Notes: a model not told the origin generated them from the letters alone. A DNA stretch of 64,000 nucleotides from Candidatus Ornithoclostridium excrementipullorum (GCA_018716085.1 DVKK01000044.1:5106-69105); one strand, 5' to 3'; numbered from the stretch's first letter, positions 1 through 5,972 are shown. Translations and numbers: made by a program.

Positions 1-1024
1 AGTAGTTGTTGATGTAATACTCGCTCGAATTTTTCTTCACATAAGGTTTGACCGTGTATCCCTCCGCCATGAATTTACTGCGGAGTTCGTTCAGAGTAAG
101 AAATCTTACGGAATCGCCGTCGTCGGCATCCCGCTCGCTGTGACCTGCATAATCGCGAAGATCGTTCTGCGGTTTGCTGTAAATACTGTCGAAACTTGCG
201 ATATAATTGACTTTTTCGGGTTCCTGACGATATGCCGCGACATCTTCACGACGATAAGCTTTTTCACGGTTTTCCTCGACGGGACGGAAGCGATCTTCGC
301 GCTTTGGGGCAAACTCTTCGCTTTGTCCGTACGCCCTCGAGTAGTCGGGAGCGTAAGTGCGCTCGTAACGCTCTTCGCCGACGGATCGGGAAATTTCGTC
401 CGCAGGTTCCTTGGAAAATGCGGGCTCCGACGCCGGGTATGCGGCAAAAGAGGAAAGCTCTGCATCTTTTTCGGGTTCTTCCTTCCGTCCGTCGTCCGCA
501 GTCGCAACTACGGGGATCGGGGCGATCACTTCATTATCTTCTTCGGATGCGGCGGTCTGCGCTTCCGCCTCGTCTTCGCCTTTTATCGACGCCATATACT
601 CGGCATACGACTGCGGATTGCGCTGACGCTTCGTCATAGGTCTGTATGCGGAGGGATCGAACGGGGGAAGGGTCGACGGATCGAATTCTTTGTCGGACAG
701 CAAGCTGTTGATGATCGTACGGCTGAATTCCCATTGCTGTTGGTCGTTTTCCAGAAAAGCTCGGCCTTCGGGCTGAAGAGAGTAGTAAACCCTCTGCGCG
801 CCGTTCGATACATCGCCTTTGTAGGAACGGATATATCCCTGTTTTTCAAGGCGTTTCAGACAGCTGTAAAGCGTGGGCTGTTTCAGCATATACAGCCCTT
901 TGCTTTTTTCCTTGATCTCGTTCAGTATCTCATAGCCGTATTTATCCTCGTCGTACAAAGCCCTGAGGATTATCGTATCCACGTGGGATCGTATAAGGTC
1001 TATGTTTACATTGGAATTTTCCAT
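1..1024 (-). CDS. PadR-family winged-helix regulator with long acidic/low-complexity extension (3' end outside window)
   Basis: Not in ORF track. AAAGGAG RBS then ATG at 1024; translates MENSNVNIDLIRSHVDTIILRALYDEDKYGYEILNEIKEKSKGLYMLKQPTLYSCLKRLEKQGYIRSYKGDVSNGAQRVYYSL (PadR YGYEI / TLY..L.RLE..GYI / R.YY motifs); open to the window edge (341 codons). Confidence 0.9.
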   Translation of the reverse strand, partial: MENSNVNIDLIRSHVDTIILRALYDEDKYGYEILNEIKEKSKGLYMLKQPTLYSCLKRLEKQGYIRSYKGDVSNGAQRVYYSLQPEGRAFLENDQQQWEFSRTIINSLLSDKEFDPSTLPPFDPSAYRPMTKRQRNPQSYAEYMASIKGEDEAEAQTAASEEDNEVIAPIPVVATADDGRKEEPEKDAELSSFAAYPASEPAFSKEPADEISRSVGEERYERTYAPDYSRAYGQSEEFAPKREDRFRPVEENREKAYRREDVAAYRQEPEKVNYIASFDSIYSKPQNDLRDYAGHSERDADDGDSVRFLTLNELRSKFMAEGYTVKPYVKKNSSEYYINNY

Positions 1025-1042
1025 GCCGTCTCCTTTATGGAT

Positions 1043-1072
1043 ATGATACAACAAATACGCGCATACAGTCAA
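1043..1072 (-). promoter_or_regulatory. Putative sigma-A promoter of the PadR gene
   Basis: TTGACT-18 nt-TATCAT on minus strand upstream of the RBS. Confidence 0.55.
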
Positions 1073-3178
1073 TCGTTGGCTCGTTTTTTCGTAACAATAA
1101 TTTTACTTTTCGGCGCAAACAGTTACAAATTGACTTTATTTTCATAATAATTTTATCAAATTAAGCCATTATTTTTCTAATTGCATACACTTTCGTAAAA
1201 ACAAGAAATTTCGCGCTTCGGATAAAGACATATATCTGCCGAGATTCCTTCCGAAACTTAAAAGCCTCCCATCTCGGCTGAGAACGAGAGGATCGAATAA
1301 GGCATCGGTTACTTAGAAATAAGAGTCCGTTCGGGCATAGGGAGATGACAAAGGAATTTTACGGCACCGCGCACGCAGCGCGATAAACGAACAAAACGCG
1401 AAAATCAAATCACACCGTAGCCTGACAGATATCCTAGTATTATTTTTTAGCTGTAAAGAGGGCGGCGATCATCATAAAATTCTCACCGAAAGCAGCTGCA
1501 ATTAAAAAGAGCAGGAACGAATAAGCTAAATTGTATAAGATGTGCAACTGATATTTTCTCATAAATCGACGATAATAGCCAAATAAACGTGATAAGCGAG
1601 AAAAACAAATTATATGAAGGCGGAATACTTGATACATTATTCAATGAGCAAATACTACGAATGCTAAAATACAAAACGTAAAGCGACGTCAGAAAGCGGT
1701 TGTGATATATCGATCGAAAGCGCAAAGGGCGCAAAATCACAATAAAATCAAATAAACTCAGAGAAAATACCGCATAAAACAGCAAAATCGGGTAGTGATG
1801 TATACAAATGTTCATATTTTATTTATACAAGCGTTCCAAGCGCTCGTGCGTTGTTTTATAATATACGATATAAGCCGGATCCTGTCTTTCCGATGCACGC
1901 AATGCTCAACGCTTATAATAATCCAACCGTAAATAACGTAACGCCAAAATGAAATTAACGGGAGATAAACGCTGCTTTCGGTGCGCTGATCTATCGGAGA
2001 ATATTTTATGATTCCGAATAAGAAAATATCGCTAAGCTTCGCAAAATAAATCCATGAGCATACTCTTGACATATCATTTGCAATTTAAGGCACATTCATC
2101 GGTCCTTCCAAAATTTTCCGATAACACTCGATATTGCTTATCGTCGTCCCGACAAAGAGTAGGTATGGCGAGTCCGATACAATTTTCTATCCGATCATGC
2201 GCGTCGATTCCGTGCAACTTTGAGCATGTAAAAATAAGATGACATCAGCACGAGTGCGAAACTCATATCATAATGAACGACTTTATCGAGTCAGATTGTG
2301 ACGCCTATCGATCGCGAATATCCATCCGCCACATAAGCATTTTAAAAGCCGATCCTGAGTTTTTTGATAGGGTAATTGCCCGTTTAATCTATTCGCAAAA
2401 GCTTAGCTTTACGAAAAGATAGTGCAAAATAATGACAAAATAGTACGATTTTCAAAATAATTTTTGTCATTTGAGCCGCAAATCGGCTTAAATCGAATTT
2501 CGATTCGCCACGATAACTCGATCGTCAATTCGAATCGTCCGATACCGTTTATATTTATCAAAACGCTTACGCCGACACGCCGACTGCCGTCGTTGCATAC
2601 ACATTTTTCGGTCAGAAATCACCGTAACAAATATGCGTCTTTTTCAAAAATCGTAATATCACCGCGTTTGGCAATGTATCAAATATATTTTGCGCAAATG
2701 AGCGTTTGTGTAAATAGCTCCGACATTGAGTTTGCCAATAAAATTTACCGAATTGAGCGTTATTCCGATATCATACCTTGATCTTGTTATAGACAACAGC
2801 GTGATCGGGTCAATACGTTACGACTTGATCATACGTTCGTATATTAATTATTCTGTCCCGCTCCCGCGCGAGCTTTATCTGTATCCGTTATCGACTGGTT
2901 GCAAAGCTGCGTTGGTTTGATTCGGCTCGGTCGGACGGCTTTCTTTCGCATCCGCAACGGATCATGATCCCCGAACGCGGTATCATATCGCTTTTTTGCC
3001 GAAAAATTCGCAATATCTGAGCAATTTTTTGCCGTCGGTATATATTCGGAACGTTTGACGGATACGAGTTTATCCGAATTTATCAAATAAGCGATCAAAC
3101 AGCTATGCCCTTTTTTCGCGCACGCTTTTACCTTGACTGAATATGAGATCGACCTGTATCTTTTCGCAAAATCATTGA

Positions 3179-3207
3179 TTGCAAAACAGGACTTATTGTG
3201 ATATCAT
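3179..3207 (+). promoter_or_regulatory. Sigma-A promoter of recombinase gene (leaderless geometry)
   Basis: TTGCAA-17 nt-TATCAT with TG extension, 6 nt before ATG 3214, no SD. Confidence 0.7.
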
Positions 3208-3213
3208 ATAAGC

Positions 3214-4269
3214 ATGAAGAAACAAACCGATTATTTCGAGCAAAGGAATATCGACAATACGCTCAAACTGCGAGAGATACGCCGCGATCTGCCGCGGTTT
3301 TGCGACGAATTTTTCATCGGTATAGAAAACAGAACGACTCCGCTCACCAGATTGGAGTACGCCTACGATCTAAGGATCTTTTTCTATTATCTTTTCTCCG
3401 AAACGCGCGAATTCCAAAGCTACGATTCGTCGAATTTCACTCTCAAACAACTTGATGAAGTCACTACGTCGCAGATAGAGGCGTTTCTGGAATTTCTCAA
3501 CTATTACAAATACGATGACAATGTCTATTCCAATACCGTAAAGACAAAAGCCCGCAAATTGTCCACCGTTAAGTCTTTCTTCAAATATTTTTACAATAAA
3601 GACGCGATAGATTCCGATCCCGCATCGAAAGTTCTTACGCCGAAACTGCACGAAAAGCCCATCATACGGCTCGAAGTGGATGAAGTGGCACGGCTGTTGG
3701 ACAGCGTGGACAGCGGCGAAGGACTTGACGGACGGCAGGCGGCTTTTCACGAAAAGACGCGTCTGCGTGATCTTGCGATAATGACGCTGTTTCTCGGCAC
3801 AGGCATCCGTATAAGCGAATTGGTCGGTCTTGACGTCGACGATCTCGATTTCAACGTCAACGGTTTCAAAATAACGCGAAAAGGCGGTTCTCAAACGATA
3901 CTCTACTTTTCGGACGAAGTTGCAGAAGCTCTGATCGCATATCTCGACGAACGCGCCCAGGACGAAAGTCTCGACGATGAGCCGGCGCTGTTTCTTTCGA
4001 TACAAAAGAAACGTATGTCCGTGCGCAGCGTCGAACTTCTCGTAAAAAAGTATGCGAAGATAGTCACTCCTCTGAAAAAAATAACGCCGCACAAACTGCG
4101 CAGTACGTACGGCACCGAATTATACCGCGAAACCGGTGATATTTACGTCGTTGCCGAAGTTCTCGGACATAAAGATATCAATACCACAAAAAAGCATTAC
4201 GCCGCCATAAGCGACGACATCAAACGCGACGCCGCGCGCAAAGTCATACTGCGGGACAAAAAGGATTGA
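3214..4269 (+). CDS. Tyrosine recombinase, XerC/XerS-like
   Basis: 351 aa; catalytic residues GIRISE (R), TRKGG (K), HKLR, LGH, KKHY; N-terminal SAM-like core-binding domain; adjacent to lexA. Confidence 0.93.
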   Translation: MKKQTDYFEQRNIDNTLKLREIRRDLPRFCDEFFIGIENRTTPLTRLEYAYDLRIFFYYLFSETREFQSYDSSNFTLKQLDEVTTSQIEAFLEFLNYYKYDDNVYSNTVKTKARKLSTVKSFFKYFYNKDAIDSDPASKVLTPKLHEKPIIRLEVDEVARLLDSVDSGEGLDGRQAAFHEKTRLRDLAIMTLFLGTGIRISELVGLDVDDLDFNVNGFKITRKGGSQTILYFSDEVAEALIAYLDERAQDESLDDEPALFLSIQKKRMSVRSVELLVKKYAKIVTPLKKITPHKLRSTYGTELYRETGDIYVVAEVLGHKDINTTKKHYAAISDDIKRDAARKVILRDKKD

Positions 4270-4290
4270 CTTCTTTTCGAGGTTTTGCGA

Positions 4291-4862
4291 CGAATATATG
4301 TTCGTCCCGACCCGCCGTTATTTTTATTTTGAGCGATCTGGCAGGATCTCGTATCGGTCGGCTTTTATCGCAGGCGCGTCCGAAGACAGATAAAATCGCG
4401 ATAAACAAATGTTCCCTTTTGAGAAAACGCCTAATAACCGATTTCAAAAATCCGTGGATGCTAAGTTTGCGCCGTATGCGTATATTCGCTCCGAGCAACC
4501 GTTTTCGGTGCTTTTTCAAGAGCGCATTTCTTATTCCACTATACGGATCGTCCGCGAATATATGTTCGCAAAATATCGACGGAGCGTTGAGGATCCGTAT
4601 GCGGCAAATTCATACAAACAGCCGACAATATCGTGCGGTCCAATAAATATTCATAACGTAGATCCGCAAATGCGGACTTGATTCTTGTATACCGCGTATT
4701 TACGGCGAATAAATGTTCGTATTCCGTAAATTGTATTCACTAAATTCGACGCGGAACGCTCCGGTATCTTTGAAAGATACGCCACAGACAGCAAGGTCGA
4801 AGATCGTCGAATTGATCGGCATGAATTTATAAAAAGTTGTTGCAAAATGTGAACGTATGTGC
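4291..4862. promoter_or_regulatory. Cluster of LexA (Cheo/SOS) boxes
   Basis: CGAATATATGTTCG 4291-4304 and 4555-4568, TAAACAAATGTTCC 4402-4415, CGAATAAATGTTCG 4706-4719, GAACGTATGTGC 4851-4862; compare Gram-positive consensus GAAC-N4-GTTC. Confidence 0.75.
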
Positions 4863-4868
4863 TAAAAT
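4840..4868 (+). promoter_or_regulatory. lexA sigma-A promoter with SOS box in the spacer
   Basis: TTGCAA-17 nt-TAAAAT (TG extended), followed by GAGGAG RBS. Confidence 0.75.
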
Positions 4869-4896
4869 GAAATCATAAACGAGGAGTAAAGACGGC

Positions 4897-5538
4897 ATGA
4901 ACTCACAGAAAACGCAGGAAAAACTTGACAAAACGCTGGCGTTTATCAAAAAATTCATACGAGAAAACAATTATCCGCCCAGCGTGCGAGAGATTTGCAA
5001 AGAGGTCGGATTCAAATCTACGGCGTCCGTCCAATATTATCTCGATAAGCTCGAATCCGACGGTCTCATCAGACGCGCTCTCTCCAAAAACCGCACTATA
5101 GAACTTCTCTGCGACGACGAAGAGGAAGCCGGCGCAGATTTTGCATCGGTCCCCATGTTGGGCAATATCGCCGCAGGTCAACCGTTGTTTGCCGCAGTGG
5201 AAAACGATATCAAACTGCACGTTCCGACGGACTTCTTCCATTTGAAGGGAGAAACGTTTTGTCTTACCGTAAAAGGCGAAAGTATGCGCGAGATCGGGAT
5301 AATGAACGGCGACGTCGTGCTGATACGCTCTACCCCGTCCGCTTCCGACGGCGACATCGTCGCGGCGCAGCTTGACGGAAACGAAGTGACCCTGAAACGC
5401 TTTTTCAGAAAATCGCCCGAGCTTATAGTGCTTCATCCCGAAAATTCGGATATGGAAGATATAATCGTCACGCCCGAGACCGAATTCCGTATACTCGGCG
5501 TGGCTGTGGGATTGATGCGCAACACTATATCGCGCTGA
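4897..5538 (+). CDS. lexA: SOS repressor LexA
   Basis: YPPSVREI wHTH, IAAG cleavage site, GESM serine and TLKR lysine dyad. Confidence 0.97.
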   Translation: MNSQKTQEKLDKTLAFIKKFIRENNYPPSVREICKEVGFKSTASVQYYLDKLESDGLIRRALSKNRTIELLCDDEEEAGADFASVPMLGNIAAGQPLFAAVENDIKLHVPTDFFHLKGETFCLTVKGESMREIGIMNGDVVLIRSTPSASDGDIVAAQLDGNEVTLKRFFRKSPELIVLHPENSDMEDIIVTPETEFRILGVAVGLMRNTISR

Positions 5539-5565
5539 TCCACGCTTGAATTATCGGATCATCAC

Positions 5566-5598
5566 GAAAGTCCCGAGATTTTTTCCCGGGGCTTTCTC
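5566..5598 (+). terminator. Probable lexA terminator hairpin
   Basis: GAAAGTCCCG...CGGGGCTTTC just after the stop; weak U tract. Confidence 0.5.
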
Positions 5599-5972
5599 AT
5601 TAAGACGCACTCTTCCGTAAAGTCACTCTCTGCTTCCTATCGATCAAATACATTCATGGATCCGCAGTTTTCACTTTATTACAGCGCGCCGACGTTCGTT
5701 GCTTACGGCGTTTCGGTTCCGTTACACGTATCGTTAAGAGGATAATAGCGCCGTTTCCTGCGGCGATACCTCCGAACATGCACCTATCCCTTGATTTGAC
5801 CTTATACGGATAACGGAACGCGCCTTGCAAAAATCGGTTCTGAATACGATATCCGTAAGTCGGAGAACTCACCCAGCCGAGCCGCTACTCGGATATATTC
5901 TTCTGCTCGCCAAAACCATTCCGGTTCATGCCCGACGGCAATCCCGCCTGTTGGCGTTCGCCCGAGTTGCGG

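Follow-up and report, generated by a model that had tools for sequence, protein, structure and literature searches.

The 627-bp non-coding spacer between a XerS-like tyrosine recombinase gene (xer) and lexA in Candidatus Ornithoclostridium excrementipullorum holds four distal boxes upstream of the operator in the lexA promoter, and the identification of these boxes as LexA-type operators, among the best matches in the genome, is supported by their sequence. The distal boxes are tentatively read as real auxiliary LexA operators on a read-through path from xer to lexA, a reading to which we give a probability of roughly 40%. The window, which is the whole stretch of DNA that was analysed, comprises 64,000 nucleotides (contig C66, 5106-69105) of a 1.69-Mb genome in 66 contigs with 54% G+C, belonging to one of the chicken-gut Clostridia.

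LexA-type boxes upstream of lexA

The lexA gene (4897-5538, plus strand) encodes a protein of 213 aa which is intact, as both the DNA-binding domain (Pfam LexA_DNA_bind, 9.4e-15) and the S24 domain (Peptidase_S24, 4.6e-30) are present, and it scores 178 bits with the NCBIfam lexA equivalog model (cut-off 111). Its promoter (4840-4868, plus strand) is made up of TTGCAA (4840-4845), 17 nt and a TG-extended TAAAAT (4863-4868), and the operator TGAACGTATGTGCT (4850-4863, plus strand) is located between the hexamers. This 29-nt block is kept in the 14 other loci of the same genus, three of which differ from it by one or two bases.

The spacer runs from the xer stop codon (4267-4269) to the lexA ATG at 4897 and therefore occupies 4270-4896, which is 627 bp and not the 630 bp of the initial annotation. 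The box coordinates given there are correct. The four distal boxes, all on the plus strand, are CGAATATATGTTCG (box 1, 4291-4304), located 22 bp past the xer stop; TAAACAAATGTTCC (4402-4415); an exact copy of the first 14-mer (box 2, 4555-4568); and CGAATAAATGTTCG (box 3, 4706-4719), which has a single mismatch to that 14-mer, so that the two identical copies and near-identical third reported initially are indeed present. Sites were scored with a LexA matrix for which other species supplied 30 distinct boxes located next to their lexA genes, the window being left out. Among 1,690,853 genome positions, the distal boxes rank 3 (4291, 17.5 bits), 7 (4402, 15.9 bits), 4 (4555, 17.4 bits) and 5 (4706, 16.5 bits), and the promoter operator at 4850 ranks 46 (12.5 bits). 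The matrix is validated by the box before dinB, which comes first in this genome. The distal boxes thus outscore the promoter operator (15.9-17.5 versus 12.5 bits), in agreement with the earlier observation that the weakest box is the one in the lexA promoter.

Clostridial LexA sites are reported to take the forms GAAC-N4-GTTC and GAAC-N4-GTTT (PMC4234289). The spacer boxes have the Cheo-box form, a 12-14 bp palindrome of GAAC-N4-GTTC/GTTT with an AT-rich centre, and each departs once from the palindrome: GAAT-N4-GTTC at 4291, 4555 and 4706, AAAC-N4-GTTC at 4402, and GAAC-N4-GTGC at 4850. The three strong boxes therefore carry GAAT in one half where GAAC is expected, and they share this off-consensus T and part of the flank in otherwise unrelated surrounding DNA. 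A search of the open-access literature for a paper on a GAAT-type LexA operator returned none. The box at 4402 is near in sequence to the dinB-upstream box ATAAACAAATGTTTGT.

The concentration of these sites is unusual at the level of the window and of the genome. When up to two mismatches to the 14-mer are allowed, the window contains 7 matches where 1.02 would be expected, a count that none of 100 shuffles attained. Matches of 13/14 to the consensus CGAACATATGTTCG number only two across the 1.69-Mb genome, and both are inside the xer-lexA spacer. The loose pattern GAA-N5-GTTC showed no enrichment in the whole window (11 matches versus 13.4 expected). More degenerate copies had also been proposed midway between boxes, and these did not hold up: the one at 4640-4653 (CCAATAAATATTCA, plus strand) is a weak, possibly decayed copy of 4.9 bits and rank 1321, 86% alike to box 3 across 14 nt, and near 4476 there is only a half-site (-35 bits).

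The four distal boxes extend over 430 bp and lie 130-550 bp from the lexA promoter. The intervals between consecutive boxes are 111, 153, 151 and 144 bp, as first reported, and the last three fall within 9 bp of one another, which occurs in about 1% of random placements. Expressed in helical turns they are 10.6, 14.6, 14.4 and 13.7, meaning that the boxes are evenly spaced and yet without a common helix face; the array described initially as phased is regular in its spacing and not in its helical phasing. A promoter scan of both strands detected no sigma-70-like promoter at 4291, 4402, 4555 or 4706, and the distal boxes are, as had been noted, without a recognisable promoter or gene. Overlap or adjacency to a promoter, which is usual for LexA operators, was found for the 4850 box only. 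In this the distal boxes resemble a titration locus of the datA type, since they form a group of sites of predicted high affinity that lack their own promoter.

Elsewhere in the genome, top matches to the LexA matrix are present before an HTH/sigma-like ORF (C63:12577), beside a serine-recombinase fragment (C25:386), at C65:6426, which has a similar sequence, and before dinB (C9:24265). No LexA box was seen upstream of recA or uvrB, both of which are apparently operon-internal.

The spacer in its genome, in other strains and in relatives

The DNA between the boxes had been described as unique, and this description stands. In a self-alignment of the spacer, shuffled sequences reached at most 24, which only the boxes exceeded, with scores of 29, 28 and 25; there is no other copy of the spacer in its own genome (best E 0.35), and none of its 11-mers is over-represented there. 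A tandem-repeat origin of the boxes was rejected on the basis of the self-alignment, of Tandem Repeats Finder, which reported nothing relevant in the spacer, and of autocorrelation of the spacer, which detected no residual similarity at lags near 150. A CRISPR-like array or tandem repeat, for which near-identical repeats of at least 23 nt with a fixed period or alignable units would be expected, was rejected because the common stretch is just 14-22 nt at 73-86% identity and the units are not alignable, and a dispersed REP/MITE-like repeat because the box has three genome copies only. As the box flanks are without similarity, the identity of the boxes is not the relic of a recent large duplication.

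The spacer appears to be specific to the species. No homologue was found in 60 relatives, bar one 43-nt match at E 0.0015, and comparison with phages gave one 30-nt chance match (E 0.05) and with plasmids nothing, so a foreign origin was rejected. The search of Rfam identified no family and a known RNA was set aside on this basis. Four spacer ORFs have no Pfam family and, by eye, no ribosome-binding site, and for the longest two, on the plus strand (126 aa and 90 aa), the best match outside the own genome among 40 relatives had an E value of at least 0.007; as the ORFs lack a family, the longest two lack relatives and indels between strains break the frames, a coding region or pseudogene remnant was rejected. 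The only terminator-like hairpins on the plus strand, at 4491-4525 and 4663-4676, are weak. A resemblance between the region of box 2 and that of the xer promoter, and a TTCGCAWAAT regulon, were also considered and rejected, with 16 genome matches against 6.5 expected and chance matches only in blastn-short. An identical 15-mer, GGTTTTGCGACGAAT, is present at the left edge of box 1 (4281-4295) and inside the recombinase gene (3296-3310), which is at chance level (E 1.3).

Variation within the species was examined with two sequences. One is a same-species metagenome contig (L035; recombinase 99% identical) that covers 4200-4564 and ends inside box 2, and the other is a strain about 3% diverged (X14), from an RNA-library run, whose contig spans the whole locus (3160-5800). 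Relative to X14, the recombinase gene has a pS of 0.068 and a pN of 0.005, and the spacer has 0.061 differences per site plus indels. The spacer therefore drifts at about the neutral rate, as its divergence is close to the synonymous rate of xer and it carries indels, and this pattern in the inter-box DNA means that no conserved RNA or peptide is evident. The differences were listed to 4599, which gives about 330 bp of spacer for comparison and covers the boxes at 4291, 4402 and 4555. The boxes at 4291 and 4402 are unchanged in both sequences and that at 4555 is unchanged in X14; there are 0 changes in 38-42 box positions and 22 and 20 elsewhere (P 0.04 and 0.06), from two strains that are non-independent.

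Conservation of the boxes in relatives, which the initial annotation had made one part of the test of its proposal, is thus partial: the boxes appear to be conserved within the species, where the constraint is statistically weak, and not outside it, so that the proposal partly fails this test. The recombinase-lexA pair is retained across the order and the promoter operator is conserved throughout the genus, unlike the distal boxes, which among 50 xer-lexA spacers (some from near-duplicate organisms) were found in the window's spacer only. The other 49 contain 0-3 boxes, tightly grouped near the promoter save in a few loci. On this comparison the box cluster is young and confined to one species. 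In ten same-genus species the spacer is 90-105 bp and has little beyond the conserved promoter-operator block, with one operator; as these species manage with such a spacer, the cluster is not needed for the module.

In the four closest species, with recombinases 90% identical, the spacers are 309-650 bp and not alignable with that of the window. These sister spacers (L006-L009, L036) are filled with YTGTCAAG-N11-15-TTTT units at a spacing of approximately 75-96 bp, with one 161-bp interval in L007. Matches to this pattern number 60-179 in four sister genomes (G002, G003, G008 and G010) against 0-5 in the control, and it is not enriched in the window's genome (15 versus 9). Because the spacers are unalignable and have different fillers, spacer growth was independent, and by different means, in neighbouring lineages. 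The YTGTCAAG repeat is a dispersed intergenic element which genome-wide often occurs in rows, at 62-88 bp spacing. In distant relatives the same interval has a LysM (YneA-like) gene and/or a Cys-rich gene reading away from lexA, with 1-3 LexA boxes; the Cys-rich gene encodes 58-73 aa and has no Pfam family. Examples of these genes between the recombinase gene and lexA are located at 2353-2907 in L028 and 1177-1353 in L029, and others are present in L030, L032 and L033.

The Xer/dif module at the replication terminus

The locus is predicted from its sequence to be a single-gene Xer/dif module which is located at the replication terminus and has lexA as its next gene. The xer gene (3214-4269, plus strand) encodes a XerS-like tyrosine recombinase of the dimer-resolution kind (Pfam Phage_integrase, 4.4e-33) whose best NCBIfam match is XerS, at 172.9 bits, which is under the cut-off of that family. 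Three further tyrosine recombinase genes are present in the genome, and for this reason it is not established as the single recombinase. Its promoter, assigned by eye, is TTGCAA-17-TATCAT.

The predicted dif site ATCTATTCGCAAAAGCTTAGCTTTACGAAAAGAT (2387-2420) is a 34-bp near-palindrome and the unique full-site match in the genome, with 41.5 bits in the full-site matrix against 28.8 for the next best genome-wide. Within the 2.1 kb upstream of the recombinase gene the sole conserved block is 77 nt long and holds the palindrome ATTCGCAAAA-N6-TTTTGCGAAT. Of 101 loci scanned, 38 have the dif palindrome in the DNA preceding the recombinase gene, and many of the loci are too short upstream. In the complete sister genome (G010), where dnaA is at 532 kb, the maximum of the cumulative GC skew is at 1,472,558, with the start of the recombinase gene near 1,473,650 and that of lexA at 1,475,049; the skew turn lies within about 190 bp of dif. 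In a further genome (G033) lexA lies opposite dnaA, and the GC-skew maximum of the window's contig is at 785.

The locus resembles the XerS/difSL system reported for streptococci and lactococci (PMC1914069, PMC2965235 and PMC3025954) in having one Xer-type gene by dif at the terminus and differs from it in that the dif site is here a near-symmetric 34-bp palindrome 0.8 kb upstream and lexA follows the gene. A single Xer-arm-like word is present 8 bp upstream of the xer -35 (3158-3171, plus strand); at 22.5 bits it is tied with two other sites for the second-best arm match in the genome. A related word, ATTTRTTCGCATAATCC, is found at the matching place in 10 other species of the genus (L010-L019), and its position suggests that the recombinase may control its own promoter.

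The recombinase target is thus predicted to be dif at 2387-2420, and the spacer has no full dif-like site, which counts against the initial suggestion of a repeat-spacer array acted on by the recombinase. A pseudo-dif array in the spacer was also rejected, as the best full site in 4200-4950, with two inverted arms of about 14 nt on either side of a 6-nt centre as the model, scores 6.9 bits against 41.5 for the true dif.

The DNA upstream of xer is gene-poor. The region 1105-3213 is a 2.1-kb stretch of low G+C (34-45%) with no long ORF, in which short hydrophobic minus-strand ORFs (1440-2072) resemble the debris of a membrane-protein gene; G010 has a stretch of equal length, of which just 77 nt align. 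A gene for a PadR-family regulator (2-1072, minus strand; Pfam 6.6e-17), with a long acidic low-complexity tail, adjoins the terminus module.

Possible roles of the distal boxes

If the boxes are auxiliary operators, LexA would bind four extra sites, three near-consensus and one dinB-like, upstream of its ordinary operator. Transcription from the separately controlled xer probably continues towards lexA, since there is no convincing terminator past xer and a scan of the 95-bp spacer of one relative detected none. LexA dimers on the four strong sites would then form serial roadblocks, by which lexA expression would stay under LexA control, and which would open only once LexA had been cleaved after DNA damage. 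The distal sites may also keep LexA near the weak promoter operator. Contigs from RNA libraries cross xer into the spacer (X15, 3245-4552; X14, 3160-5800), and it is possible that the libraries contain DNA. The RNA-run data are assembled contigs showing neither strand nor ends, and for the same reason a gap in X16 (4222-4785) and breaks in X15 near 4552 and 4848 are uninformative on transcription. Contigs running from xer into the spacer are compatible with read-through and prove nothing.

The auxiliary-operator reading is supported by the site ranks of 3, 4, 5 and 7, the presence in the spacer of the two best consensus matches of the genome, the published clostridial site forms, the weaker promoter operator, the intact lexA, the lack of distal promoters, the weakness of the hairpins, the dissimilar box flanks and the unchanged boxes at 4291, 4402 and 4555 in a drifting spacer. 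Against it are the absence of the cluster from the 49 other spacers, the GAAT half of the three strong boxes, the weak constraint on the boxes, the small number of sites (three or four) relative to the LexA pool of a typical cell and the gene-poor, fast-changing terminus DNA nearby. CodY in Bacillus subtilis represses by roadblock inside transcription units, and LexA at the distal boxes is proposed to stop transcription arriving from xer in a similar way, with the difference that read-through is here only inferred. We know of no LexA roadblock demonstrated at such sites, nor of evidence that LexA dimers loop DNA.

The most probable of the alternatives, although we still doubt it, is that the boxes have no function and arose incidentally as a spacer rich in junk turned over at the terminus, in which slippage, template switching or gene conversion copied palindromes that LexA may bind inconsequentially. 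The cluster is present in 0 of the 49 other spacers, its own spacer is an orphan drifting at the synonymous rate, the spacers of sister species have been filled by an unrelated dispersed repeat, and the 2.1 kb upstream of xer is likewise gene-poor and barely conserved; furthermore, the common off-consensus T and partial flank of three boxes point to copying over independent selection. However, it is hard to see how 627 bp by lexA would come to hold four of the top seven LexA matches in a genome of 1.69 Mb without selection or very specific copying, two of the 14-mers are identical despite dissimilar flanks, and 0 changes were seen in 42 box positions between strains where approximately 2.5-3 would be expected. 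As the cluster is young, found in a single species and embedded in freely drifting DNA, it may be an evolutionary accident and its weight is limited. It is unlikely that the boxes are instead operators of one or more unannotated damage-induced transcripts from the spacer, for example a small RNA, or an antisense transcript that starts around the lexA promoter and heads for xer. A promoter-like minus-strand sequence (TTCACA, 18 nt, TAAATT; 4853 to 4824) does overlap the lexA operator, two plus-strand hairpins with T-runs follow the boxes at 4402 and 4555 by about 90-125 nt, and distant relatives place LexA-controlled LysM YneA-like or Cys-rich genes here, reading away from lexA; but a sigma-70-like promoter is found at no distal box, Rfam contains no matching family, the inter-box DNA has indels and synonymous-rate change between strains, and the spacer ORFs lack a family and, judged by eye, a ribosome-binding site, the longest two also lacking relatives.

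Two further possibilities concern LexA storage and a third concerns a different protein. Promoter-less high-affinity sites could act as a reservoir or decoy that stores LexA by its own gene in a form activated RecA cannot cleave and so shapes the SOS threshold and recovery, and this we consider very unlikely. In its favour, the distal sites beat the promoter operator and include four of the seven best sites of the genome; LexA on DNA is reported to escape RecA-driven cleavage (PMC4234289), off-rates to set the timing (PMC3159453) and decoy sites to alter the behaviour of negatively autoregulated factors (PMC7505660). No relative has a comparable store, however, and a store of four dimers would be small unless this organism contains very little LexA. 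Oligomerisation of the kind described for datA, the DnaA titration locus, is to our knowledge not known for LexA. The bolder version, in which the strongest LexA sites of the genome form a dedicated store by lexA at the terminus, as a LexA counterpart of datA, is quite unlikely. LexA resistant to cleavage would be kept there, the SOS response would owe both its threshold and its shut-off to the store, and transcription from the dimer-resolvase gene to lexA would be gated by it. The least probable reading, and a highly improbable one, is that the boxes dock the neighbouring Xer recombinase, as pseudo-dif sites or accessory arms, or another palindrome-binding protein, and not LexA. The dif arms do end, on their outer sides, in sequences similar to the box halves (..GCGAAT / ATTCGC..). 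When scored as Xer arms, the flank to the right of box 2 (4560-4573) reaches 15.3 bits and that to the left of box 1 reaches 10.2 bits, the latter being by eye a Xer arm split by three extra bases. Yet the best full dif-like site in the spacer reaches 6.9 bits against 41.5, what is common to the three boxes is the LexA palindrome and not the CAAAA part of the arm, and with about 60 arm matches of at least 15 bits genome-wide, one such match near a TTCG word is unremarkable.

Multi-box lexA regions and distal LexA sites are already known. The lexA-yneA intergenic region of Bacillus subtilis has three LexA boxes, and the locus described here is like this and the equivalent multi-operator lexA regions of relatives (L028, L032, L041 and L059) in having several Cheo-type boxes before an autoregulated lexA. 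Those regions have 2-3 boxes within approximately 70 bp that serve two back-to-back promoters, the second gene being of the LysM or Cys-rich type and directed away from lexA, whereas here four boxes are spread across 430 bp and there is no second gene. LexA operators are usually read as promoter switches. A group of a genome's best sites that is placed on no promoter and directly before lexA would offer a natural example of how auxiliary or decoy operators can tune a master repressor under its own negative control.

C. difficile CDR20291_2056 is reported to have two LexA operators approximately 460 bp upstream (PMC4234289) and the E. coli uvrB promoter region four LexA sites (PMC6015884), so that in both, as here, the single operator of textbooks is exceeded in number of sites or in distance to the start codon. 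Those sites belong to the promoter region of the regulated gene, whereas here the best sites are promoter-less and lie before lexA itself. The datA locus (PMC12371093) offers a reservoir analogy, as its sites bind a regulator with high affinity and yet control no gene, but unlike the LexA cluster it involves another protein and reportedly holds many molecules through oligomerisation. A promoter-less cluster of a genome's best LexA sites before lexA was not found in searches of the open-access literature.

The order-wide link of lexA to a XerS-like recombinase and a 34-bp dif means that damage signalling adjoins chromosome-dimer resolution. In one lineage (L026, L037, L038 and L045) a perfect GAACATTTGTTT is located just past the -10 of the recombinase promoter, and from the position of this box the recombinase gene itself looks to be SOS-controlled there.
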